A stretch of 64,000 nt of DNA from positions 64,001-128,000 of IMG/VR virus record IMGVR_UViG_3300028800_000062. One strand, 5' to 3'. The notes beneath the pieces are model-generated. The model had not been told where the DNA came from and did not search any database. It was given only the letters and a program-made list of their open reading frames with translations. Below, piece after piece: positions 1,313 to 50,442 of the stretch (the stretch's first letter is position 1; the number at the start of each line of letters is the position of its first letter). This DNA comes from a virus. The position numbers were made by a program, and so were the translations under genes.

Positions 1313-2722
1313 ATGAAGAACCTAGCCATACTGACCATGATCTTTGCAGGCGTCGCCTCCGCGCAATCTGCAGGCACCGCCTCCACGCAATGTCCTGCAG
1401 GCTCCAAACTGGTTGAGGTCCTGCGAGGCAGTTGGCAATGTACACCTCAGGCAAGCAGCGGAAAGAGCGCCAGCGCGCTTCCGGCAGCCCTTCCAACTTC
1501 TGTCATATTGGCTTCACGTACCAGCGCCACGGGATATGAACTCGCGGCCTGGGGAGATTCGTTGATTGCGGGCGGAGCTAATCAGACTGGATTGCAAGGA
1601 CCGCTGGCTACGCTACTGGGCCGGCCCGTCTATAACGGAGGCGTAGGGGGACAGACTTGTGCGCAGATCTCAGCCCGTATGCTGGCGGCAACAGACAAGA
1701 AGGGTCGCTTTGTTATTATATGGGCGGGCGTTAATGACTCCGGCAACAATTTCGCCACGGTGCCTGCTTGTATTGCCGGCATGGTTGCTTCCCTGGAGCA
1801 GCCTACCCGGTTCCTGGTAATCTCCCTGCTGCCGAACTCCGCCTGGGTCGGTACTTCCGCATTCACAGCCATGCAGGCCACAAATGCGGCTTTGAAGGCA
1901 GCCTATCCAAACAACTATTACGACGCGCTCGGGTACTTGCTCACGCAAGGCACCGGGACCGGACAGGACCAAATCGATGCGGCGGGTGGAATGACTCCGA
2001 CTTCGCTTCGCGCCGATGCCATCCATCCAACTACCGCGACCAATGTTCTATTGGCAAACCAGGTCGCCGCTTGGATTATAGCGCAGGATACACTGCAACT
2101 AGGCGCCGTACCGGTGTCCTCGATCAGCGACATCTTTGCCTCTCCGCCGGCACTGGGCGGAAATGTTCCACAGTCCGCCACACATACTCGCATGAACGTA
2201 CTCTCAGGTGGAACCTGGGACTACGGCACAGACCCCGCTACCGGCGGTACCGGGACCGGAATCGCGATCGGAACCAACATCGTCCCGGCGTATCACACAC
2301 TCACACTGGCGAGCAATTTGCTGGCTATGGGTGCCGGCGGCTTTACTCCGACAGACCCTATCGATATCCGGTCTTTCGGCGTGATCTCGATCGGTCAATC
2401 GAGCGGGTATGCCAACGTACTCAGCGCAGGACCCGGCAACACCATCCTAAAAGGCGCGGCCATCTACTTACAGGCTCCGGCCGGGACCAATATGCTTGGC
2501 ATCGGAACCGTCCGAGTATGCGTTGGACAGTCCTCGTGCTCAGTATCAGGCACAGGTCAGTTTGCCAACAAGGGAAACACGATTCGCTTTGCTGATGCGG
2601 CGCGCACGCCGGCCAGCAGTTCGGAAGCCTGCAATGCCGGCGAAGCATTCTTCGACGCCACATATTTGTACGTGTGCACGGCTACGAACACGATCAAACG
2701 CCTGACATTGACTGCTTTCTAA
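1313..2722 (+). CDS. SGNH/GDSL esterase-domain tail-associated protein with signal peptide
   Basis: SD AAGGAG; signal MKNLAILTMIFAGVASA|Q; SGNH blocks AWGDSL, GVGG, GVND, DAIHP; C-terminal PASSSEACNAGEAFFDATYLYVCTATNTIKR module common in phage fibres. Confidence 0.8.
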   Translation: MKNLAILTMIFAGVASAQSAGTASTQCPAGSKLVEVLRGSWQCTPQASSGKSASALPAALPTSVILASRTSATGYELAAWGDSLIAGGANQTGLQGPLATLLGRPVYNGGVGGQTCAQISARMLAATDKKGRFVIIWAGVNDSGNNFATVPACIAGMVASLEQPTRFLVISLLPNSAWVGTSAFTAMQATNAALKAAYPNNYYDALGYLLTQGTGTGQDQIDAAGGMTPTSLRADAIHPTTATNVLLANQVAAWIIAQDTLQLGAVPVSSISDIFASPPALGGNVPQSATHTRMNVLSGGTWDYGTDPATGGTGTGIAIGTNIVPAYHTLTLASNLLAMGAGGFTPTDPIDIRSFGVISIGQSSGYANVLSAGPGNTILKGAAIYLQAPAGTNMLGIGTVRVCVGQSSCSVSGTGQFANKGNTIRFADAARTPASSSEACNAGEAFFDATYLYVCTATNTIKRLTLTAF

Positions 2723-2728
2723 AGTGTA

Positions 2729-5700
2729 ATGAATCCTCTATCTCAAGCCTTTCGAGCACTCGGACCGCGGGCAGCGACTGCGGCGGGTGCTCTAGCTGTG
2801 GCAGCTCCCTGGTTCCTCAAGAATGACGACCGGGGCTACCTGCAGACGGCGGCCTTCACCACTCCCCTGATCGCCGCCGGTTTCACGGCTCTTCCCGGGG
2901 CCATGTCCGGTGTCTGGAATATGTCTACAGAGATCGGACAACTCTGGAGCAACCGCGCCTTCCTGGGACAGGATTATCCGCAACTTCTGAAGGGCTATCG
3001 CCGGCAGGGAACTAGTGTGCGGCGGTCCATGCATAAATATGTGCAGGCTCAGGGACAAGACTGGTACGCATCCATCCGACCTACCCAGGAAGACTGGTCC
3101 GGCCAGGCATTCGATCTTCTCGGCAAATACCGCAACCAGGCGAAAGAACTGCGGCAGTCAGTGCACGGCCGCGGCGCCGGCGTCAGCGCGCGGGAGTTTC
3201 GGCCGCAGATCGAGCAGGATCTCAAGCATCGCATTCTATTGTCGCGGACTGTAGAAGAGGCCCGCATGGCGGGACTGACTCCGGAGAAGGCCGCGGAAAG
3301 AAGCCACCTGTTACAACCCAAACTGCGGTCCTGGGACCAGATTGAGCAAGTAGTCAAGGAGCACAGTGGGAACCAGGACTTCCTGCGGACTTTCGCCCGG
3401 CGCGCGCAGCGACTCGACGACTTGAACCTGGGCAAGCGGGTCTCCGGGGCGCAACTGCTAAAAACCAGTACCTACGAACGCCAGAACCTAGGTTTTGCAA
3501 TCATGCAGGCGCGCCAGGCCGAGAACGGCCATTTGCTGAAACGTCTGCAACTGGCGGAAGAAGCCATTCACAACAAGTGGATCCAGAAGGCGGATGTCAT
3601 TTATCAGGGCGAACAAGCGATAGGCCTGGAGCTGTTCAACCACCGGGGAAGATCTTTCAATTTGCCTCTGATTGGGAGTCAGGACAAGGTCGTCTCGATG
3701 GGGCCGGGGTGGAATCACCGAGGAACGTTTGCGCAGCTGTGGGATGAGAAGGGTATCCGTCTACCCGATATATCCGTGCTTGAAAACCTCAGCGATTGGA
3801 AGGACGCCAAACAGGCGGCCGTTTCCAGTTTCCAGTGGGGAGGTATCACCGATCGCACCGATACTGTCGATGCCGCCCTGCACGAGGACTTGAAAGGTAG
3901 CGTATCTCCTAAGTGGGCCCTGGCAGAGCGCAGCCTACGCGCCAATCCGGATCCGTTCGGAACGCACGCCGGTGGCAAGCGCTGGAAAGACCTGACAGAC
4001 GCCGAGAAGCACGCGGCGGAGATGTCCGCCATGGAGAAATACGATCTGACCAAGGTGGGCGGCGAGGGCGGCATCGCTTTCGGCAAGCTTGAGTCCCGCC
4101 TGGCGGAAGGCAATTCCATCGGTTTAGTGCCCTCGCCCACTCATCAGGATCCCGGTTACCGGTCATTCTCCAAGGACTTTTATATCGACCCGGAGAGTAT
4201 CAAAGACCTGGATAAGCCGCACCTCAGCTCGACGTTCTTCAAAGAGCAGCTGGGTGTCGAAGCTGGTGAAATGCCGGAGTTTTCCGCCCGATTCGGCGAG
4301 ATCACGCCGCAGGTCAAGTCCATGTACGGGGACATTCCGGCGGAGGCCGAGCGTGCGGCGCAGGAGGCCGTCAAAGAAGACCGCAGGTTCCTGTTGCAGG
4401 CCAAACGCGCGCATATCGATCACTTGCAAGACCTGGTGGAGAAGGGCAAGGGCGTAATCCGGCATCCCCAGGCGAGCAAAGATGTGATCGGAGATATCCA
4501 GCGGGACATCGAGCATTACAATCATCAGATCCGTTCTCTGAAGTCCAAGAAGTTGTCCCAACTGGAGATGCGCCAGCAGTTCGGAGCCACTCGGGAGTAC
4601 CTGGAGTTCCAGGGTGAACTGCAGAATAAGTTGCGTACAGCATTGGGTCCAGAGTATGAGACTCATCTGACAGGCTCCCTGCTCAAGCACATTCAGCGAG
4701 GAGCGGAAGCCACGGAAGCTGAGCGGGTTCTCGCAGGCCAGGTATCCCAACGCGTCCTGCGTGAATTGGTTGCAGATCCGCTGAATATCATTGCCGCCCG
4801 CGGTTACCAGACGCTAGGTGAAACGATCTTCAATACCGGCGATCGGCTGAGCGGCGTGAAGGGCATGCTAGACCGTAAGTTGAGTCTGTCAGAACTGTGG
4901 CAGGAGAAGGGCGCCGCCTTGCAACAGGGGGATGTCATTGGATTTGATGAGCATGGCAAACCCATCGCGGCGCGTACCGAGAGTGTGGTGCAGGACGTGG
5001 TTGGCAACGATGTTATCCTGCGCGAGCGCTTCGGCATTGCAGGCGCTAAGGGTGAAGGTCCTGGGGCTAAGGGTCTGTTCCACTCCGCCATTTATAACAA
5101 AGAGGACCTGCTCCCCAGACAGGTCCGGTTGAACAACCTGGTAACCGAGTTAACAGGTGTAGGTGGAGTTATTCCGGAACAGGTAGAAGGCCTGGCACTG
5201 GCTGAGTACTCCGCGTTCAAGACCAAGAATCCGATGGCCGATCTGCTCGAAGTCTCCGTGGATATTGCGGAACAACTGGTCAAAGGAAAGCATCTCAAAT
5301 CCGAACAGTTCCTGCAGGATTTGCAGAACAATCACTTCATCTATCGTAACGGCCGGTACGAGGAACAGTTTGCGGACGTATACCAGATGAGCCGGCAGGA
5401 TGCGGCACAGCGTTATTACGACCTGAGCAAGAAGGCGGAACATTATCTTGACGACGTGGGCAATGAGTCCGGTCACTTCGTGCTGGACGCCTTCCAACGC
5501 ACCACGGCTGCACAGCAACGGGCCGGACGCCAGACCGATTCACTTTCTCAATGGGTCTTTAAGAACTACCGGCAAGGCGCGGTTCGACTGTGGGATCACA
5601 CCCGCTTGAACCGCCCGGCACAAACCGGAGTCACCTATGACATGCTCTACGAAATGCAGCGCGCCGGGCATACCGAGGGAATGCGTGACATCTTCGAGAA

Positions 5701-7906
5701 CATCAGGTATCCGCAGGGCGATCCGGCTATGGCGCGCGAAGTCCAGAATTATCTGGCCGCCGGCGACTATGTGAACAAGCCCATAGGCGCAGCCTTGCAG
5801 CTCGATGAGATCGAGAATCTGGACTACCGCCTGTCGACGATAGAATCCCGCATGGGCAAAAGCGTCTTCAACCCGGAGTTTGCGCCCAATAACCTGTCGA
5901 TAGACCTGGGTGGCGTGCTGAAGGAAGTCAAACTGGGCGGCGAATCCGTCAATCTTCGTTACCTGCCGAAACTGGGGATGGACGCCTACAAAGGCGGCGC
6001 CAACGCTTATGGTTCCGGAGAGTGGGCGGCCAGTGAGCTCGAGCACGGTATGCATGACGCTTTGTCGGCTGCCGCCGGCATCGACTGGGCCAATCCGGAA
6101 TCGCATCAGATGAACAACCTGCGCACTAAAGTCTCCGAATACATGGAGAAGCTTTCTACTGAGTTAGGAGGAAAGGACGGTGTGCTGCGCGCGGATATGA
6201 CGCATCGCGCTGGAATCTACGGCGTAGCGGCGGAGCGTTCCAGCAGCGTAGGGGGCACGGCGCCATTCGAGATGAGCATTCCGAAGAGTATGGCCGAGGG
6301 CATCGAAGACCAGGCCCTGCGCACGGACGTTCTGAGCGGTAACGGGTACGCGGCTCTATTCCGCGATCCCAACTCCGCGGCTATGTATATGCGCGTGCGG
6401 GTAGATCCCACGGCCCATCTTGATCCGAACGAGTTCGGCATTCACTCCAGGGTGCGATCCGCCTTCCAGATGGACCATGACAAGGATTGGATGAAAGCAC
6501 TGTTTGTAACCAAGCAGGGCGCCCTTGAAGAAGCCCGGAAGGCAATTACAGATCAAGCCAGTCCTCAGTGGCAGAACCTGTTGGCCGCTGAGATGTTTCA
6601 AGGTACCGAGAATCCGCAGAATATCACCGGCCGGGCCTTTGCCGCCGAGGCGGAAGAGAAGGGTTGGAGCGGAGCCGGCAACTATCTGGACAACCTGCGC
6701 AAGGGATTATCGGATAGTGTGGAGGCCTCCAGGGCCCAGAGTTTCCGGGCGCGCTTATTCCACGGGTACACCGGTCATTTCTCGAACATGACGACCCGGC
6801 TGCAACTGATGTTGGCGAACAGCCCGGACTTGCTACCCGGGGACCGGGATTATTCAGCCTTCTCTTCCCTGTTATTCGATGTCAGGCAAACAGCTATTTC
6901 CGCTGGCAAGGGGAAGATGGGTGTGGGCGCGGAGCCTCTCGCAGTGCTGGCGAATCTGAATAAGTCGATCAATCAGGGCGAGGCAGGGTTGGATCTGTTT
7001 CAGCAGTCCATGAGTATGGTTGCTCGCGGCACGGGATTCACCGGTATCTACGACCAGGCCGCCGCGGATGTTACAGGTGTGGGTCTGGAAGAGGCCCGCA
7101 ACATTCTGGGAAACGAGAGTTTGCAGTTTGGGGATGAGGCCAATAACCTACTGCTATGGACCAAGGGCGGGCACGGCCGGGAAAGCATGCGGAAGCTGCT
7201 GGCGAGTCCCAATAACCTGAAGGCCAAACGCCTGACATCGTACCTGACCAGGGGTGAAATCAGCGTAGATGATGCGCTGGAGATGTCCCAGATACGGGAC
7301 ATGTCCCCGGAGATGATTGGCGGCATTCTGAAACAGCGTTCCTCTTCCGGAGTCCTGCATAGCATGGCGGAATCCGTTGCCGGAGAATCGGGCGGCCGGA
7401 TGTCCGATCGGGTCTCCCGCACGCTGGGCATGCTCAATGAAGGTGCCCGGGAAGGCTGGTCTTCCGCAGGCAAGACTCTGAAGCCGGCGGGCAAAGTGTT
7501 GGCCGCTGGGTTGGGATTAGCGGCGATCGCAGGCGTCATGACCGCGACCGCATCCAGCAACAAATACCGGCCGGAAGAAGAAATAGGAGTGAACGACCAG
7601 ATCCCCGGTGAGCCGGTTGCAGGATCTCGGGCGAGTGTCAATCCGAAACGCACGGAACAACCTGCGCGACCCTCCCCGCGGACCATCGTGGCGGCCAATA
7701 TGCGGCATGCGGTTGACCTTGAGATCCGTGCGAAGACTCCGGACCACGCCTCCTCCGTGGAAATGGCCAAGAATATCCAGCGGTTTACCGATACCGGCGG
7801 CGTTTCGAATGTGACCGTACAGCACTCCGGCGGCTGGCAGAAGAGCGCCAGCAAGTTACGCATGCAGGAACGGATTCGGGAAGAGTTAGATAAGCACCAA
7901 AGTTAG
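2729..7906 (+). CDS. Putative single-chain (beta+beta'-like) two-barrel RNA polymerase, probably virion-packaged
   Basis: Ordered motifs GAKGEGPGAKG (beta GDK..GNKG), GGKDGVLR (beta' KGKQGRFR), SIPKSMA (GLPKKMA), LFRDP (LNRAP), IHSRVRSAFQMDHDKDWM (LHPLVCAAYNADFDGDQM). Lies among structural genes. Confidence 0.72.
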   Translation: MNPLSQAFRALGPRAATAAGALAVAAPWFLKNDDRGYLQTAAFTTPLIAAGFTALPGAMSGVWNMSTEIGQLWSNRAFLGQDYPQLLKGYRRQGTSVRRSMHKYVQAQGQDWYASIRPTQEDWSGQAFDLLGKYRNQAKELRQSVHGRGAGVSAREFRPQIEQDLKHRILLSRTVEEARMAGLTPEKAAERSHLLQPKLRSWDQIEQVVKEHSGNQDFLRTFARRAQRLDDLNLGKRVSGAQLLKTSTYERQNLGFAIMQARQAENGHLLKRLQLAEEAIHNKWIQKADVIYQGEQAIGLELFNHRGRSFNLPLIGSQDKVVSMGPGWNHRGTFAQLWDEKGIRLPDISVLENLSDWKDAKQAAVSSFQWGGITDRTDTVDAALHEDLKGSVSPKWALAERSLRANPDPFGTHAGGKRWKDLTDAEKHAAEMSAMEKYDLTKVGGEGGIAFGKLESRLAEGNSIGLVPSPTHQDPGYRSFSKDFYIDPESIKDLDKPHLSSTFFKEQLGVEAGEMPEFSARFGEITPQVKSMYGDIPAEAERAAQEAVKEDRRFLLQAKRAHIDHLQDLVEKGKGVIRHPQASKDVIGDIQRDIEHYNHQIRSLKSKKLSQLEMRQQFGATREYLEFQGELQNKLRTALGPEYETHLTGSLLKHIQRGAEATEAERVLAGQVSQRVLRELVADPLNIIAARGYQTLGETIFNTGDRLSGVKGMLDRKLSLSELWQEKGAALQQGDVIGFDEHGKPIAARTESVVQDVVGNDVILRERFGIAGAKGEGPGAKGLFHSAIYNKEDLLPRQVRLNNLVTELTGVGGVIPEQVEGLALAEYSAFKTKNPMADLLEVSVDIAEQLVKGKHLKSEQFLQDLQNNHFIYRNGRYEEQFADVYQMSRQDAAQRYYDLSKKAEHYLDDVGNESGHFVLDAFQRTTAAQQRAGRQTDSLSQWVFKNYRQGAVRLWDHTRLNRPAQTGVTYDMLYEMQRAGHTEGMRDIFENIRYPQGDPAMAREVQNYLAAGDYVNKPIGAALQLDEIENLDYRLSTIESRMGKSVFNPEFAPNNLSIDLGGVLKEVKLGGESVNLRYLPKLGMDAYKGGANAYGSGEWAASELEHGMHDALSAAAGIDWANPESHQMNNLRTKVSEYMEKLSTELGGKDGVLRADMTHRAGIYGVAAERSSSVGGTAPFEMSIPKSMAEGIEDQALRTDVLSGNGYAALFRDPNSAAMYMRVRVDPTAHLDPNEFGIHSRVRSAFQMDHDKDWMKALFVTKQGALEEARKAITDQASPQWQNLLAAEMFQGTENPQNITGRAFAAEAEEKGWSGAGNYLDNLRKGLSDSVEASRAQSFRARLFHGYTGHFSNMTTRLQLMLANSPDLLPGDRDYSAFSSLLFDVRQTAISAGKGKMGVGAEPLAVLANLNKSINQGEAGLDLFQQSMSMVARGTGFTGIYDQAAADVTGVGLEEARNILGNESLQFGDEANNLLLWTKGGHGRESMRKLLASPNNLKAKRLTSYLTRGEISVDDALEMSQIRDMSPEMIGGILKQRSSSGVLHSMAESVAGESGGRMSDRVSRTLGMLNEGAREGWSSAGKTLKPAGKVLAAGLGLAAIAGVMTATASSNKYRPEEEIGVNDQIPGEPVAGSRASVNPKRTEQPARPSPRTIVAANMRHAVDLEIRAKTPDHASSVEMAKNIQRFTDTGGVSNVTVQHSGGWQKSASKLRMQERIREELDKHQS

Positions 7907-7919
7907 TGAGTTCACCATT

Positions 7920-10900
7920 ATGAGCCTTTTACTGAGTGACACGCCCGGAGAAAACGACGGCGGCTATTTCCGCATTGGCGATGTGATCTTAAGGATTCCA
8001 CCGGAGTCCATATCCACCAACAAGGTCACGGATAACGAAGAGGTGTCTACCTTACGTGCCAAGTACCCCATGTACGTCAAAGATGGTCATTCGCGCTGGG
8101 ATGTGACTGTGACCTGGAAGGCTTTGGTCACTAACGACGGAGGCACTCCGGATTACACTCAGTGGGTTTCGCTGCAGCGGATTCTGGCCATGTTCAAAGC
8201 CGCACCGTTTGTGCAGGTGGAGAGCGGGCACCTTCGGCAACTGGTGATGGCGGATCCTGAATTAGACCGGGCCGACCGGACTGCCCGCATGGCTTTCGCG
8301 TTGCGCCAGCTTCGAGTGGACACTCTCCCTGATATTCCACAGGGTCTACAGTGCACCCTGACTATGAGCTGGTTCAATTACCTGCCCTATTCGACGGATT
8401 TCGGATATTTAGACCCCAATGGCCAGCCGGAAGACGCCACCCAATACACCCAGTTCACCGACTATATCGATACCTGGTTGAGCGAGAACCTGCAGGGGCC
8501 TCCGGATCCATTTGACGGCCGGCCGGATCTCTCGAAGAAGTTCGGCTATCCGGACCTATCATTGTGGAACCAGCAAACCCCCGGTACAGTAAAGTTGCAT
8601 TGGCGCCAGTATTGTGTGGTTCCTATCGACGACCAGACCGCACCATCAGCTTCAGCTCCAGCGGCGCCTTCTCAGCCAACCGGTATTCCCAGCTCCAAAC
8701 TGTCTTCCGGACCTGCTGATATTCGTGCGAAGATCACCCAGGCGGCACAAGCCCAGGGAGTGGATCCGGCGTTGGCCCTCGCTGTTGCCTACCACGAGAG
8801 CCGCTTCAATCCCACCGCCAAGAATCCGAACAGCAGCGCTTATGGGGTATTTCAAATCATTCCCCGCTGGCATCCGGAGATCAATCAGTATCCCAACAAA
8901 GGCGTGCAGGACGTCGACTCCAACATTCAGGTGGGAGTTGGGTATTTGAAACAGTGCCTCAACCACTACAACGGAAACCAGAAAGAAGCCTTGTGGGCCT
9001 ACAACCAGGGAGAGGGCGCTGTAGATAACTTCCTGCGCGGTAAGACCTCCGCTTTACCCAATGGGACCGTTCAGTATGCGGACGCCGTCCTGCAGATGGC
9101 CTACCAGGGAACTCCCCAAGTAAAGAGCACGCCGGTGGCGGATGCATCGCCGCTGAAGTCTGCGGCACCTGTACAGGCGGCCGCGCCCAGCACGGATACT
9201 TGGCCGGAGCCGGTAGAAACCAAGGTTAACAACCTGATTGCTAAGGGCTGGTGGGCAGATCACAACACGGAGCGGGCCGTATTCCTGTACAAACCGCATC
9301 AGATCGAGTTTCAGGATGAGGAACACGGCGGCGGTCCCAACCTGGATTGCTGTTACCCGGTACAGATATCCGTGGTATTCGTCAACAAGATTGCCGTGCA
9401 GCCGCTGCGCGGTTATCAGTATCCGGTGATGCAACACCTGGGCCCGGCCGGGACTATGATTTCGGTAGGATTTCTCTCCAACGCCCTGCCGGCGGGCGAT
9501 TCCGAACCGGTACACTCCGGGCCGGCTAAGATGGCAGGCATGTGCTCTGCACTCGAAGATCAGTTCCATAGGCTGCAGGGGGAGTGGCGCTCGATTTATG
9601 CTATCCACCGCATGCAGGCTGTGATCGTCGAGAACCAGGTTCTGAACGCGCTGGGTATCTACGGCACCCTGGTCAACAACTTCAATAGTGAGACGCTGCC
9701 AGAGTCGGCTTCCCTGGCGCAGGCGGCCCTGAGCCTGGTGCAGTACGAGAATGTATTCGAGGAGATCGGATCTTATAGGGTCAACGGGCTAACAGGGGCC
9801 AGTGCAGCCGTGTTGAACCAGATCATGACCGACGGCACCTTGGCCACGGCCAGCAAGGGTCCCGGGGGCGATGCTTATAAACCGCTGACGCAGTATCAGT
9901 CCGATAAGCAATCGCAAAATCCCGCGCCGGTGATGCAGATGATGCAGGACAGCCGCTATCAGACACCGGTAGTTCCCATGCCGGTAAAGCTGACTGCCGA
10001 TCAGCAGCAGACGCTGGTTCAGGCCATTGCTTCGAACAAAACTCAGGCGTCCGCGAGCACCGCGGCAGACTCCACCCTGGTTGCCCAGAACATGGCAGGC
10101 GTGCCTACTTTCAACGCTTCAGGCACCAGTCTGACAGGCGGAGGGATTACGCAGGTGGATCCGGAGCTGGCCTCCCGCATTCAGTCCGGGTCTTTCTCAT
10201 ATAACGATTACTTCCAGTTTGTCCATTCGCCGGGGCTCTCCGGCAATGCGTCGATCCAGTCCCTCAATCAGAGCGTCAATCAGGTCATTGCCAACCAGGT
10301 GCCCGCCGACCAGGCGCCCATGACCAAGCTATACCAGTCGGTATTCGACTATCAGAGTAAGTACAACGCTGCCTTTGTGGCGGCCGTAGGTCAGATGCAG
10401 TTCGATCCAACAACTGCCAGTAAATTCACCAACGCGGTAAATCCCAACGGACCCGGAAGTGACGATGCGAATAAGAACCACGGATCCTACCGGGACCTGG
10501 GGCTGAAGACCCTGTCGCTGGGGAACGGACTGGACTTCAATCCAGGATACTATTTCACCAATAACGAGAAGAAGCAACGTCAGGCCTTGCGCGATCAGTT
10601 GACATACGCCGTGTCGGCTTCCAATGCTGCGCTGAGTTATTTCAACAAGGCGACCTCCAATGCCTCCTCGGCGCCGGCTGACAATTCGATACAAAACAGC
10701 GATTCGCAGAATCCCGCCGCGATGAACGTCAATACGGAGATGATTCTGGAGCGCACGGTGACCCCTTTCAAGTCCATGAAGCGGGCCTTTCCGACCTTCA
10801 AGCTGTTTCTGGTGGAAGAAGACAACACCGGACCTTTCTTCATGTTCGACAACTTCTACTGCTACTCCTCAGTGCTGAACATGGAAATCATCCGTTACCA

Positions 10901-13307
10901 GGACAAGCCGGATATGGCCGTGATTCAACTGACCAACCTGGCGAATCTACTATCGCACAAAGTGTTCGATTCGAGTGCGTCCGGCAAGCAGGAATACAAT
11001 TTGTCTAATCTGCAGGATGTACCTGGAAGCAGTGTAGGAGGGCCGGTAACCGGAGGCATGGGCGGCGCGGTGCAGGCGCGTAAGACGCCCGCCGGAGTGG
11101 TGCTTGAACAGGAAAAGATCCTGAATCTGTCCAAAGGCTATAATGCACAGGTGAAGGACGTCCCGCTGCAGTACTACCCCCTGCAGACTGGGGCCAAGAT
11201 CCAGATCCGCATGGGTTACACCAACAACCCGGATTTGCTCTATCCAGTATTCACTGGAAAAGTAACTCAGATCGAAGGCGAAGACATCCTGACCATCACC
11301 GCCCAGAGCTTCATGCTGGAGTTGATGGATAAGGATCACAATGAGCTGCGCAGCGACGGGTACTTTAATCTGAGCACGGTTTCCGAGACCATCCGCAACT
11401 GGGGCGTGCCTACGAAAGGGGCGGCCTACGGGGGTTGGACTTTCCTGCGGGATTCCGGAACTGCAGGGTGTGTCATGTCAGACGTGCTGAAGTGCAGCGG
11501 AGCCCGGCACTTTGGACACTGGCAGGTAAACCCGGTGCAGAAGAATACGCCGTTCATGCGCGGTTTCGGCTGGATTGAGTTGACGGCCGCGGCCGCCGGC
11601 GCCCTGGGCGCTTCCAAGATCCAGTCCGTAACGCAAGCCTTGCAGGACCGGAGAGATGAGAATATCCTCATTAACCAGCTGATCAGTACGGACGGCACCG
11701 TAGCCCAGCAGCGCATCAAGCGCGCCGATCAGTTTGAGAAGCCGGCGGAGATCTTCGCCTCGGTCTATGGGATTCCAGACGATCCTGAGATCACTCCCTG
11801 GACGATCCTGAGAGACATTTCCCGCCGATACCCGGAGTATCGTCTGCTGGAGCGGCCCTACGGGTTCCCCTACGGTTGCGACGGAACCCTGGTCTTTGCG
11901 CATCCGAACGACCTGTATATCACGCGTCCCAAGATGGCCAACAGCGCTGAAGCTACGGCCATGAACATCACCAATAACGGCAAGTTTGAAGATTGGTTCA
12001 CACCCGTGCAGCGCGCCAAGATAGTAGCCCTGCCCGGCATGAGCGACCTGGCCGCCGATGCCGCCCGTTATATTCTGATGAATGTCACCAACCCGTCCGG
12101 CAGTAAAGCCCCGGCCACGTCCAACCGGTATACGTCGGCGGAGCGTCTCGGGGAACAGACTGCCAGTTGGATCGATCAGGGAGGGTTGACCACTTTCAAT
12201 GCTATTTTGAACGGATATGCCGACTATGCCGCACAGAAGACGGCATTGTCTAAAGTGGTCCAGATCTTCGAGTTCGGCCTCGGCGACCTGCAGGGGCATG
12301 CTAATGACCTGCGCATGACGGTGAGAGCCATTCAGAACGACGCGATCAGCCACATCAACCTGCCGGCGGATCGGCAGAACAGCACAGCCTCGGACCCGTC
12401 TTCGCCCGCCTACCTGCAACCTGTGCGCAAATGGCACGTGATCAGCACCGACAATATCATCCACAACGGCATCACCATCAACGAGCAGATCTTCAACGCG
12501 GTGCGCATCAACAAGGACATTATCAAGGCCAATATTAACATTCCGGACTACTACACCCGGGTGCTCGACTGCAATAAGCTGATCATCGAGCCGGACCGTA
12601 ACCTGGGGGTTGCGGGAGGTCCCGGAACGCTCGAACGGGCCTACGCTCAGAGTTTCCTGCGCGAAGAGGTCGGTAAGATGTACCGGGGAGAGCTGGTAAT
12701 CACCGGCGTGCCGGAAATGGATCCGGGCGACGGGATTATGCTGTTGGATTCCACCACAGGTACCGCGGGCCCACTTGAGATCGAAAGCGTGATCCATTCC
12801 TTCGATCAAGAAATGGGGTATATCACGGTGGTCCGGCCGCGGGCCATGGTGGTGACTAATGAAGCCACCACGCTTGGCATTATTGCGGCCTTCAACAATC
12901 TGAACTTGTTTCAAGAGCTGGGCGCATTGGGACGGGACCTCTCTTCAACACCTCAGGCTGCTGCAGCCACTGCGGTAGGCGCCACAGCCGCTGTAACCAC
13001 AGCTGGTCTGGCGGTCTCCACAGCTGTGGCTGCGGGTGTATCGTTGACCGGCGTGGGATTGGCGGTGGTGGTCGGCATGTTGTTGACCTACGTCGTGTTG
13101 GCCGACATGAAGCAGGAATCTCTGCCGCTCATCGTGGCGCCGCTAAACCGTTATGGACGTCCCTGGGTGGGAGGCCTGAATGGATGGGCTCTCACGGATC
13201 TGCACACCTACGTGGAGAAGCGTTTCCAACAGTTCTGGAACTTCGAGATCGCGCCCACTTTGCAGGGATTCAAGAACCTCAAAGGCATCGTCGACAGCTA
13301 CACCTAG
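7920..13307 (+). CDS. Baseplate hub / tail-associated lysin with lytic transglycosylase (SLT) domain
   Basis: SLT motifs AVAYHESRFNP, AYGVFQI, AYNQG; hub-like motifs GAKIQIRMGY..VFTGKVTQIE and GELVITGVPEMDPGD..IESVIHSF; hydrophobic C-terminal stretch. Confidence 0.8.
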   Translation: MSLLLSDTPGENDGGYFRIGDVILRIPPESISTNKVTDNEEVSTLRAKYPMYVKDGHSRWDVTVTWKALVTNDGGTPDYTQWVSLQRILAMFKAAPFVQVESGHLRQLVMADPELDRADRTARMAFALRQLRVDTLPDIPQGLQCTLTMSWFNYLPYSTDFGYLDPNGQPEDATQYTQFTDYIDTWLSENLQGPPDPFDGRPDLSKKFGYPDLSLWNQQTPGTVKLHWRQYCVVPIDDQTAPSASAPAAPSQPTGIPSSKLSSGPADIRAKITQAAQAQGVDPALALAVAYHESRFNPTAKNPNSSAYGVFQIIPRWHPEINQYPNKGVQDVDSNIQVGVGYLKQCLNHYNGNQKEALWAYNQGEGAVDNFLRGKTSALPNGTVQYADAVLQMAYQGTPQVKSTPVADASPLKSAAPVQAAAPSTDTWPEPVETKVNNLIAKGWWADHNTERAVFLYKPHQIEFQDEEHGGGPNLDCCYPVQISVVFVNKIAVQPLRGYQYPVMQHLGPAGTMISVGFLSNALPAGDSEPVHSGPAKMAGMCSALEDQFHRLQGEWRSIYAIHRMQAVIVENQVLNALGIYGTLVNNFNSETLPESASLAQAALSLVQYENVFEEIGSYRVNGLTGASAAVLNQIMTDGTLATASKGPGGDAYKPLTQYQSDKQSQNPAPVMQMMQDSRYQTPVVPMPVKLTADQQQTLVQAIASNKTQASASTAADSTLVAQNMAGVPTFNASGTSLTGGGITQVDPELASRIQSGSFSYNDYFQFVHSPGLSGNASIQSLNQSVNQVIANQVPADQAPMTKLYQSVFDYQSKYNAAFVAAVGQMQFDPTTASKFTNAVNPNGPGSDDANKNHGSYRDLGLKTLSLGNGLDFNPGYYFTNNEKKQRQALRDQLTYAVSASNAALSYFNKATSNASSAPADNSIQNSDSQNPAAMNVNTEMILERTVTPFKSMKRAFPTFKLFLVEEDNTGPFFMFDNFYCYSSVLNMEIIRYQDKPDMAVIQLTNLANLLSHKVFDSSASGKQEYNLSNLQDVPGSSVGGPVTGGMGGAVQARKTPAGVVLEQEKILNLSKGYNAQVKDVPLQYYPLQTGAKIQIRMGYTNNPDLLYPVFTGKVTQIEGEDILTITAQSFMLELMDKDHNELRSDGYFNLSTVSETIRNWGVPTKGAAYGGWTFLRDSGTAGCVMSDVLKCSGARHFGHWQVNPVQKNTPFMRGFGWIELTAAAAGALGASKIQSVTQALQDRRDENILINQLISTDGTVAQQRIKRADQFEKPAEIFASVYGIPDDPEITPWTILRDISRRYPEYRLLERPYGFPYGCDGTLVFAHPNDLYITRPKMANSAEATAMNITNNGKFEDWFTPVQRAKIVALPGMSDLAADAARYILMNVTNPSGSKAPATSNRYTSAERLGEQTASWIDQGGLTTFNAILNGYADYAAQKTALSKVVQIFEFGLGDLQGHANDLRMTVRAIQNDAISHINLPADRQNSTASDPSSPAYLQPVRKWHVISTDNIIHNGITINEQIFNAVRINKDIIKANINIPDYYTRVLDCNKLIIEPDRNLGVAGGPGTLERAYAQSFLREEVGKMYRGELVITGVPEMDPGDGIMLLDSTTGTAGPLEIESVIHSFDQEMGYITVVRPRAMVVTNEATTLGIIAAFNNLNLFQELGALGRDLSSTPQAAAATAVGATAAVTTAGLAVSTAVAAGVSLTGVGLAVVVGMLLTYVVLADMKQESLPLIVAPLNRYGRPWVGGLNGWALTDLHTYVEKRFQQFWNFEIAPTLQGFKNLKGIVDSYT

Positions 13308-48647: not shown

Positions 48648-49346
48648 CTAAGACGGCTTCTCGTCCTTTGCTAGTATAGCGGCGGGCTCTATCAGGAGCT
48701 GGCGGTAGGGAAAATAATCGATGTTGGGCAAGCCGTTTGTGGTGAGCGACATAACGGCATTGAAGTTCTCCGTGAAGCGGTTGGCGTGCGCGCCAGTGCC
48801 GCGGGGATACTGGCGCAGACGCCAACGATTCCCGGGAAGGGCCTCCTGGTACAAGCCTCCGGCGTTGTAAGCACAGGCGGCATAAACCGGGTCAAACCCG
48901 GTAATAGGTTTTAATTGCAATAGATAGGAGGCACAAGCCTCCAGGGAATTGGTGGGATTGATCAGCCAGGCGCGGTCGATCTTCGGGTTGTGCATGACGG
49001 AACGCGCGGTGCTGATCAGGAGCTGGCAAAAGCCGGCGCTGATCCGGCTGGGAGTCTCCTCATCGGAAATATAGCCCGGCTCTTCGCGAATGGAGGTTTC
49101 CGGATGAATAGGGGCGCCCTCGGTCAACGCGCAGGCCGCCAACAGTTCGAATGGAACGCGCTTGTCATTGGAGACTTTCCCAAACAAGGGAGCATAGAGA
49201 TCCGTGTAATGCTTGGCGCGCTGTTGCACGGCGGCGCCGGGCAGTACCAAACCCAAACCTTCAATCTCTAACCCCTGCATTCCCACTCTCCAGCGCACAC
49301 CGCCGGGAAACTTCGCATGGAATTCATTCAAGTTGACGTCAGGCAT
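48648..49346 (-). CDS. Endolysin, lytic transglycosylase (SLT) family
   Basis: ACALTEG (catalytic E), SAGFCQLL, AYNAG motifs. Confidence 0.8.
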   Translation of the reverse strand: MPDVNLNEFHAKFPGGVRWRVGMQGLEIEGLGLVLPGAAVQQRAKHYTDLYAPLFGKVSNDKRVPFELLAACALTEGAPIHPETSIREEPGYISDEETPSRISAGFCQLLISTARSVMHNPKIDRAWLINPTNSLEACASYLLQLKPITGFDPVYAACAYNAGGLYQEALPGNRWRLRQYPRGTGAHANRFTENFNAVMSLTTNGLPNIDYFPYRQLLIEPAAILAKDEKPS

Positions 49347-50442
49347 GTTCACACTCCACTACGGCTTGCTGCAACAAGCGCAAGATCTTGCTGTAAGACG
49401 ATCGGACGGTTTGTACTGGAATCAGCAGGGCATCCGCCACCTTTTCCCAAGTGAACTCCCGGACGAACACCAGATAAAGCAGATACCGGTCAATTTGAGA
49501 TAAGTCCCGAAACAGAGGGTCTTCCGTGTGCTTGACCCAGTCCAGATTGATCTCGCCTAGGTCCAACGGATGCAGATGGTTAATTACATTCACTGCCCAC
49601 CATTTCCCAGAGCGTTCCACAAACGCACCAGTGGAATTAAGAACAGCGCCGTCATCCCGGCCATCTGATTTCTCGCGGCCGAAGTCGAGGGAATAGATTC
49701 CTTCCTTGGTTTCGATCTCCGATCGGCCATGTTCGATGTACTGCTGGAGATAATACCGGAACCACGTCTGTAGGTAATATGTAAATCCGATGGGTCCGGC
49801 ATGCAGGTACTTGGCTGGGGGCGGCCAGGCAGCAGCCTTCCGCCGATATCGGCGCGGGCAGCCGACTTCCGGTGCCGGCTCCAGAAACCCATGGCGGCAG
49901 AGGATGCGCACAAAGCGAGTCCCGTCAAAGTCCAGGTGCTGGTTGAGTTCATCAATAGAAAAGTCATCTCCACAGGGTTTCTTCTTCTTCAGAATGGCCA
50001 CCACTTCCGCCACCTTGTCGGAATAGAGTGGATCGTACTTCTTGGCGGCCTTGAGCAGTTGTTCCATCAATACGTCGTAGATCTCATCCGATCCGAACCC
50101 TTTGAAAACCAGATGGAATGTGCGACATACCTGTAAGGTAGTAGCCTTGCTCATCTTCGTACCCTTGGGCACGAAATACTGGATGAACTGCTTGGTGTCA
50201 GCGTTAACCACCTTGGACATCCCGTCGAAACTGACGGGCATATGACCGCGGCAGATCATCAACAGGTACTTCATCAGATACCCGTGGAAAGCCTGGACTA
50301 TCTCGAGAAACTTGGCCCGTTTCTCTGCACCTTCTTCGAGCAGCGCATACTCGCTGCCCAGCCGGTTGGTCTCATCCAACGATAAGACCTTGCTTTCCCA
50401 GCCGGACGCATAATGGGACGCCGGCAATAAGACGGACTTCAT
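49339..50442 (-). CDS. Sigma-70-like phage transcription factor
   Basis: Region-2-like DEIYDVLMEQLLKAAKKYDP...GFTYYLQTWFRYYL and region-4 HTH LSQIDRYLLYL..FTWEKVADALLIPVQTVRS. Confidence 0.7.
   Translation of the reverse strand: MKSVLLPASHYASGWESKVLSLDETNRLGSEYALLEEGAEKRAKFLEIVQAFHGYLMKYLLMICRGHMPVSFDGMSKVVNADTKQFIQYFVPKGTKMSKATTLQVCRTFHLVFKGFGSDEIYDVLMEQLLKAAKKYDPLYSDKVAEVVAILKKKKPCGDDFSIDELNQHLDFDGTRFVRILCRHGFLEPAPEVGCPRRYRRKAAAWPPPAKYLHAGPIGFTYYLQTWFRYYLQQYIEHGRSEIETKEGIYSLDFGREKSDGRDDGAVLNSTGAFVERSGKWWAVNVINHLHPLDLGEINLDWVKHTEDPLFRDLSQIDRYLLYLVFVREFTWEKVADALLIPVQTVRSSYSKILRLLQQAVVECEHA

Follow-up and report, generated by a model that had tools for sequence, protein, structure and literature searches.

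A candidate single-chain two-barrel RNA polymerase in the tail module of a contractile-tailed phage

Can a giant protein that is encoded among phage tail genes and matched by no known family be an RNA polymerase (RNAP) that enters the cell together with the DNA? The question is raised by P0001, an open reading frame (ORF) at window 2729-7906 (+), which is intact from ATG to stop and encodes 1725 amino acids (aa). The window is the whole stretch of 64,000 nucleotides (nt) analysed, positions 64001-128000 of the linear, 146,742-bp IMG/VR record IMGVR_UViG_3300028800_000062 (CheckV completeness estimate, 68%); "genome" coordinates refer to the entire 146.7-kb record. An initial annotation had read P0001 as a fused two-barrel RNAP, and both the conservation of its motifs and its predicted fold support this. 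The reading favoured here, which we regard as likely, is that P0001 is a catalytically competent single-chain beta plus beta' RNAP, built into the tail and delivered with the DNA. To our knowledge, injected two-barrel RNAPs have been shown in only a few phage groups: the phiKZ/AR9 type, the crAss-like phages (gp66) and P23-45 (gp96). P0001 is of a kind already known from gp96 and gp66; new are its sequence family, its architecture and the type of phage.

Conserved motifs in an unannotated family

All the motifs first reported for P0001 are present, with the residues and order given: RGYQTLGETIF starts at residue 691, QQGDVIG at 732, GAKGEGPGAKG spans 772-782, GGKDGVLR starts at 1147, EMSIPKSMA at 1181, LFRDP at 1210 (R1212), DHDKD spans 1249-1253, and TGHFSN and QTAISAGK start at 1348 and 1387. 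The DxDxD string occurs six times in the ORFs of at least 300 aa of the record, so that by itself it is weak evidence and not beyond chance. What does go beyond chance is the conservation of the P0001 motifs.

This conservation could be followed in a family of distant relatives. A word-indexed search retrieved one of them (P0003, 70% identity, on a 204-kb contig) and a locus search with P0001 alone a single IMG/VR locus (71% identical). An exhaustive phmmer search (HMMER) with aa 600-1500 against 1.84 billion cluster representatives returned 60 proteins, 21 of them with E<1e-30, mostly of 1500-1800 aa and with 25-36% identity. The family comprises about 60 clusters at 50% identity, from metagenomes only, and because its longest member has 1809 aa, no longer fused forms are visible in it. 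Words of P0001 were found with shares of 0.05-0.17 in six rhizosphere metagenome runs, none of the listed holders being RNA, and no habitat is inferred from them. One member, P0039 (543 aa, on a 158-kb contig), contains the C-terminal third only (post-catalytic region, membrane helix and C-terminal domain) and may represent a split or frameshifted gene, or an artefact of gene calling.

Across 42 full-length homologues aligned with MAFFT, which share 25-36% identity, G697, G738, G1148, R1154, R1212, P1214, D1249, D1251, D1253, Q1387 and K1394 are invariant (42/42), K774, K781, K1149, G1349, N1353 and I1390 are conserved in all but one (41/42, 98%), and E698 in 95%. At position 1252 of the loop 17 of the homologues have K and 10 have G, with the Asp triad constant; DHDKD is therefore a normal variant of the loop and not a degenerate one. 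The family signatures are G-[AST]-K-x-D-x-x-G-[VI]-K-G, G-K-x-G-x-L-R, R-[HQ]-P-[VI]-S, A-D-x-D-[K/G]-D, R...I-G-x-[YF]-S-N-x-L-T and R-Q-x-P-I-S-A-x-K. Lack of conservation was one of two observations that the initial annotation had named as fatal to its proposal: the lysine, Asp and R/Q/K motifs proved conserved, and EMSIPKSMA is the sole quoted motif that is poorly conserved (P1179/F1180, 81-83%). Read from the alignment, invariant catalytic-site residues amid such low overall identity are the signature of a maintained active site.

Sequence comparison with known proteins yields very little, as expected for a gene that, it had been supposed, would normally be annotated as hypothetical. Neither Pfam nor PHROGs matches P0001, whole or in fragments, and at E<=10 Pfam hmmscan was likewise empty for full-length P0001 and for fragments of its core, RNA_pol_Rpb1_2 and RNA_pol_Rpb2_6 staying below their gathering thresholds. 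A PF00623 search of the record gave no match, although the same family was found in 14/14 control genomes. Searches of PDB sequences by phmmer and profile hmmsearch, with P0001 or its family, produced sub-threshold matches only. In 50,697 phage records neither full-length P0001 nor its catalytic core gave anything meaningful by tblastn, and the literature searches brought up no description of the family.

The profile alignments that were obtained are non-significant, and the three of them agree solely in choosing the catalytic loop. By hhalign, family profile A1 aligns with residues 1-1200 of P23-45 gp96 at E 0.026 and a probability of 1.9%, and only the RxP...DxDxD stretch pairs, FRDP with FRNP and DHDKD with DFDGD. 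The family profile aligns with E. coli beta' at E 0.13, placing the loop on NADFDGD, and hmmsearch against PDB reached residues 452-480 of archaeal Rpo1N, in the catalytic loop region, at E 0.5. Profile A2 gave no meaningful hhalign alignment with E. coli beta. P0001 thus has no significant sequence relation to gp96.

Predicted fold and active site

Two template-free AlphaFold2 runs, with family alignments of 47-53 rows, covered overlapping fragments of P0001, aa 640-1480 (predicted local distance difference test, pLDDT, 89.8; predicted template modelling score, pTM, 0.86) and aa 300-1010 (pLDDT 90.6, pTM 0.85). In a Foldseek search of PDB the aa 640-1480 model has 411 matches at E<=1e-3, and the best 50 of the 411 are all largest RNAP subunits; its largest-subunit matches comprise bacterial beta', Rpb1 and AR9 nvRNAP, and the alignments run on into the C-terminal part of Rpb1. 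The best 50 matches of the aa 300-1010 model are all second-largest subunits (vaccinia Rpo132, E. coli beta, A135, plastid beta), and among the matches listed it pairs with subunits of the beta/Rpb2 class only. Each model leads to the right, and different, subunit class with two different aligners, one of them exhaustive. In the ESM Atlas the nearest clusters all bear RNAP Pfam families, and a viral cluster (692 aa) and a Chloroflexota cluster (1006 aa) hold Rpb2_6 and Rpb1_2 in one chain. The best structural neighbours in BFVD include a protein of Acinetobacter phage ME3, a 'minor tail protein' of an uncultured siphovirus and a protein of Microcystis phage MaMV-DC.

The fold comparison proposed in the initial annotation (AlphaFold followed by structure search) returned a predicted two-barrel RNAP architecture, with beta followed by beta' matches at a pLDDT of about 90; of its two parts, structure search gave clear RNAP matches and profile comparison did not. 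Because the profile links are non-significant, the RNAP assignment rests on predicted structure and motif conservation, and on these P0001 very probably folds as a two-barrel RNAP whose active site is maintained. That it is instead no polymerase at all, with models that are wrong and motifs that coincide by accident, is scarcely credible. Such a view could appeal to the shallow alignments used for folding and to the lack of a significant sequence match to any RNAP family, but it has to account for two independent overlapping models of high confidence that each retrieve a different, correct subunit class, and for invariant residues that fall exactly on the expected structural elements.

The models place about 1180 of the 1725 residues in a globular polymerase core; the coordinates that follow are window positions on the plus strand. 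The beta-like half (aa 300-1010, 3626-5758) is predicted to comprise a lobe-like N-terminal part, long helices, barrel B and the beta C-terminal part. Barrel B, a beta-type double-psi barrel at about aa 695-790 (4811-5098), is strand-rich in both models and contains G697-E698, G738 and the lysine pair; alignments to single-chain RNAPs begin here, at model residue 54-57. The lysine pair lies in GAKGEGPGAKG (5042-5074), where K774 and K781, candidates for nucleoside triphosphate (NTP) binding, are predicted on consecutive barrel strands in the aa 640-1480 model. About 370 aa separate the two barrels, P0001 aligns with residues of the beta' clamp region, and so long a connector suggests a clamp.

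The beta'-like half (aa 1010-1480, 5759-7168) includes the conserved G1148-K1149...R1154 (GKxGxLR, 6170-6190), which, with its position ahead of barrel A, we propose as the counterpart of beta' KxGRFR. In barrel A, a predicted beta'-type double-psi barrel at aa 1159-1284 (6203-6580), R1212-x-P1214 ends a strand and the Asp triad of the predicted catalytic loop DHDKD (6473-6487) sits in the loop that precedes the next one. The predictions therefore hold the features of the two-barrel superfamily, a barrel A with a DxDxD loop and a barrel B with two conserved lysines. Beyond barrel A, TGHFSN falls within a 33-residue helix at aa 1331-1363 (6719-6817; helix H692-724 of model 1) that bears R1342, G1349, S1352, N1353 and T1356; its position, together with alignments that continue into the C-terminal part of Rpb1, makes it a candidate bridge helix. 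At the end of the next helix, the conserved R1386-Q1387...I1390...K1394 (RQxPISAxK, 6884-6910) is a candidate for the first trigger-loop helix. In the proposed enzyme (core at about aa 300-1480), barrel B would contribute K774/K781 and barrel A the Mg-binding triad D1249/D1251/D1253, followed by the bridge-helix-like helix and a trigger-loop-like segment.

A two-barrel enzyme need not be a DNA-dependent RNAP, and P0001 could instead make RNA on an RNA template or from a primer, like QDE-1/RDR, or make DNA, like archaeal PolD. We consider this decidedly unlikely, since each half separately finds its best match in DNA-dependent RNAP beta or beta' over 300-400 residues, including lobe-like and clamp-like parts, and no PolD chain is among the matches listed; QDE-1 itself also has DNA-dependent activity (PMC9508822). 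As to the clade within the two-barrel superfamily, the models point in two directions: the halves appear nearest to cellular beta/beta', yet barrel B looks free of inserts, as described for the group of YonO and RNA-dependent RNA polymerases (PMC7824862).

The tail module and proposed delivery into the cell

The record belongs to a contractile-tailed phage, with portal-like, major capsid and tail sheath (genome 49367-51268) genes, tube paralogues, baseplate J and tail fibres. The phage genome is roughly 200 kb, and its tail module is related to those of Bacillus phage 0305phi8-36 and Acinetobacter phage ME3: in tblastn both phages are hit by the tube paralogues, and ME3 also by the sheath. P0001 is co-oriented with the tail genes and flanked by homologues of virion proteins, with gaps of 6 nt upstream and 13 nt downstream in which no terminator-like site is listed. 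The upstream neighbour (window 1313-2722, +) encodes a tail-fibre-like GDSL esterase of 469 aa (Lipase_GDSL_2, 1.1e-9; phrog_11419 tail fibre, 5e-25), whose stop codon lies 6 nt ahead of the P0001 start. Just upstream of the window, Giant-1 (genome 57375-62336, 1653 aa) matches 0305phi8-36 gp145, whose annotation records it as a virion protein from mass spectrometry (MS), at E 2.5e-30 and ME3_35 at E 1.7e-23 in tblastn. Downstream follows P0002 (window 7920-13307, +), a baseplate hub/lysin giant of 1795 aa with an SLT transglycosylase domain at aa 272-373 (Pfam SLT, 8.9e-23; phrog_20474/342), which matches the ME3_37 'baseplate hub' and 0305phi8-36 gp147. Since its flanks match gp145/ME3_35 and gp147/ME3_37, P0001 occupies the slot of 0305phi8-36 gp146 and ME3_36. 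The order of a giant (about 1630-1740 aa), the RNAP-like protein and a lysin/hub giant (about 1770-1860 aa) is repeated in the three relatives in which both neighbours are visible (L011, L012, L023). In L023 baseplate J lies four genes downstream, and in a further relative, L009, the giant is upstream and the downstream gene is cut.

Outside the core, the termini are the best conserved parts of P0001. The N-terminal region (aa 1-299, window 2729-3625, +) has no Pfam match; within it, aa 1-60 are hydrophobic and contain the family signature RGYxxTAxxTTP. A conserved transmembrane-like helix at aa 1586-1609 (7484-7555, +), with a hydropathy peak at the equivalent place in 8/8 family members checked, precedes a conserved C-terminal domain (aa 1610-1725, 7556-7903, +; RPEE..D..PGEP..GS...LRMRE..RE in alignment A3). 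Mean identity in the family is highest in this helix (45%) and second highest in aa 1-60 (42%), followed by the C-terminal domain (38%) and the core (21-30%). A profile search with the C-terminal module matched members of the P0001 family only, and the language-model neighbours of the C-terminus scored at most 0.83, at noise level (a 'tape measure protein' scored 0.80). Most likely the conserved termini hold the enzyme in place in the tail or particle and have a role at the membrane.

From motif conservation, predicted fold and synteny, which are directly supported, we infer catalysis, packaging, injection and timing. As for packaging and injection, the context tips the balance towards a protein that is carried in the virion. 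P0001 would be made late, along with the tail proteins, and its termini would attach it within the particle, probably in the tail lumen or hub region. The hydrophobic N-terminus, the C-terminal membrane helix and the domain behind it most likely help the protein to be incorporated into the particle or tail and to leave through the envelope. On contraction P0001 would be released together with the flanking giants and would transcribe the first genes of the incoming DNA without the host RNAP. P23-45 gp96 acts in this manner, as a virion RNAP that transcribes the first genes of the incoming DNA independently of host RNAP (PMC10770324). Later stages may use the host polymerase, and the sole hint is a protein of 367 aa (window 49339-50442, -) with a sub-threshold match to Sigma70 region 4 (aa 312-358, E 2e-4, 21.3 bits against a cut-off of 24.1); on this match it may be a phage sigma-like factor for the host polymerase.

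An active RNAP might also remain unpackaged, made late or by read-through with the tail genes and working in the infected cell, for instance on late genes. No second polymerase and no sigma region 2 was found in the 146.7-kb record (unfiltered family hidden Markov model (HMM), DxDxD scan, PF00623, PF00940, PF04542), so one enzyme might serve all stages; this negative is uninformative, however, because the record is 68% complete and PF00940 matched no control. An enzyme first made inside the tail operon could not start an infection, the best-conserved parts (N-terminus, membrane helix and C-terminal domain) would have no role in a soluble polymerase, and the gene keeps its place between two virion giants in three relatives besides the window. 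An unpackaged enzyme is therefore unlikely.

P0001 holds the tape-measure position, after sheath and tube and directly ahead of the hub/lysin giant. No tape-measure family and no peptidase family of Pfam or PHROGs matches it, and with its predicted globular core it is not a long, mostly helical protein of the tape-measure type. In 0305phi8-36 the same slot is taken by gp146, a 'hypothetical tape measure protein' seen in virions by MS, and neither gp146 nor gp145 contains DxDxD; slot occupancy alone is therefore no sign of a polymerase. The gp146 annotation also favours the idea of a structural, tape-measure-like tail protein that has kept a polymerase fold and lost catalysis, as do the better conservation of the termini than of the core and the non-canonical DHDKD loop. 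Loss of catalysis is nevertheless very unlikely for a protein in which the catalytic-site residues are invariant or nearly so in 42 homologues of low identity, and in which the fourth loop position varies freely between K and G and the three Asp never do.

Several observations weigh against a working, tail-delivered RNAP. Besides the non-significant profile links to RNAPs and the gp146 that fills the same slot without DxDxD, a folded 190-kDa enzyme with a clamp-sized connector of about 370 aa does not obviously fit passage through a tail tube, and no polymerase-specific promoter motif was found in the record. In the promoter search no exact 10-mer was shared by at least four intergenic regions, and 12-mers with at most two mismatches reached only 7/59 intergenic regions against a GC-rich background; sigma-70-like and terminator-like sites showed no enrichment over shuffles.

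A tentative extension of the tail-delivered RNAP, doubtful at present, has the tape-measure slot held by a working RNAP that is seated in the tail by its termini, leaves first on contraction, is anchored in the inner membrane and transcribes the genome during entry, forming a three-protein 'ejectosome' with the nuclease-bearing gp145 homologue and the lysin/hub protein. If true, such an ejectosome would have no precedent in myoviruses, and the tail-borne polymerase known from P23-45 would have been invented independently a second time. Giant-1, the gp145 homologue, may be a nuclease ejected alongside the polymerase. Pfam and PHROGs do not match Giant-1, which opens with FFDVETGG, similar to the ExoI motif of DEDD 3'-5' exonucleases, and contains a single hydrophobic helix (aa 356-377); its positional counterpart in relative L012 carries a Pfam SNase domain. 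P0002 has a long Ser/Ala/Gln-rich middle of low complexity and a strongly hydrophobic C-terminal segment (aa 1681-1732), a membrane-type element as in P0001.

Known two-barrel polymerases and further genes

Among known systems, the virion two-barrel RNAP of P23-45 (gp96; also in P74-26, G20c and TSP4) is fused to the tape measure (PDB 8H2M/8H2N; Chaban et al. 2024, PMC10770324). With 5002 aa, a metallopeptidase and a long tape-measure body, gp96 belongs to a long non-contractile tail, whereas P0001 has 1725 aa, belongs to a contractile tail and bears its polymerase mid-chain. It lacks a gp96-type fusion, having no peptidase or tape-measure family and a single, C-terminal membrane-like helix. 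gp96 is clamp-less and flat; P0001, with its long stretch between the barrels, aligns with residues of the beta' clamp region and is structurally nearer to beta/beta' and QDE-1 than to gp96. The gp66 of crAss-like phage phi14:2 (PDB 6VR4) is a large packaged and ejected two-barrel RNAP with a DFDID loop (bioRxiv 10.1101/2020.03.07.982082). It shares with P0001 the functional concept, the DxDxD loop and its resistance to annotation by sequence, but its phage is podovirus-like and its protein family is another one; 6VR4 is absent among the matches listed for P0001, which excludes no similarity.

Polymerases of cellular beta/beta' type, among them the split jumbo-phage enzymes phiKZ nvRNAP (7OGP) and AR9 nvRNAP (7S00), have 2-5 subunits, whereas P0001 is one polypeptide in a tail operon, with a compact barrel B that has no obvious flap insert and with no alpha, omega or sigma partners evident. 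To QDE-1, plant RDR and YonO-type enzymes (7Y7P, 7W84) no sequence relation was found, YonO itself not being among the proteins compared, and P0001 adds beta-like N-terminal lobes and virion-type terminal modules.

In a comparative survey, phages related to 0305phi8-36 and ME3 lacked such enzymes apart from one YonO-like gene (PMC7824862). The YonO-like ABS83659.1 of 0305phi8-36 (Iyer et al.) was not found in the genome stretches examined. In the cultured jumbo phage vB_AbaM_ME3 of Acinetobacter, the gene between those of the gp145 homologue and the baseplate hub (L016 33172-37983) encodes ME3_36 (gp36), a 'hypothetical protein' with a length of 1603 aa. It contains DHDQD (residue 1217) and a K-x6-K pair (632/639), and is likely an unannotated tail-module RNAP. 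Neither ME3_36 nor gp146, which share the slot of P0001, resembles it at the BLAST or HMM level, and the records consulted describe neither of the two as a polymerase; a profile search of the MaMV-DC and ME3 genomes for the P0001 family returned nothing, and hhalign of A1 with ME3_36 was non-significant. A second ME3 protein, of 798 aa, is also RNAP-like in BFVD. In MaMV-DC, two giants that lack annotation bear loops of RNAP-like type: ORF65L (1677 aa, L022 1225-6258) has GDADGD at 1352 and G-K...K-G at 938, and ORF82L (3560 aa, L022 18653-29335) has GDFDGD at 2537; one or the other is probably the BFVD neighbour A0A075BUT7.

If P0001 and its relatives are injected RNAPs, they would carry the strategy of an injected polymerase to contractile-tailed phages of about 200 kb related to 0305phi8-36 and ME3. 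A cellular beta/beta' architecture in one chain, diverged beyond profile detection, would inform on the evolution of the two-barrel superfamily and on the means by which a contractile tail can carry and release an enzyme of this size. 'Hypothetical' giants of tail modules can thus conceal core information-processing enzymes. ME3 is a cultured phage, and its gp36, with DHDQD in the same slot, offers a route to experiments.

Further genes of the record call for brief mention. Two tube-paralogue genes (genome 52117-54297) follow the sheath and tube genes, as gp140/gp141 do in 0305phi8-36, and carry the PHROG label 'major head protein', which is also given to gp140/gp141 in the 0305phi8-36 RefSeq record. 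A recA homologue of 645 aa (genome 130607-132544, -), with RecA at aa 432-641 and LAGLIDADG_3 at aa 302-351, is probably interrupted by an intein. At the end of the record lies a gene for an SNF2-type helicase (952 aa, genome 143847-146705, -), a class of helicases that co-occurs with phage multisubunit RNAPs in phiKZ-like phages (PMC7824862).

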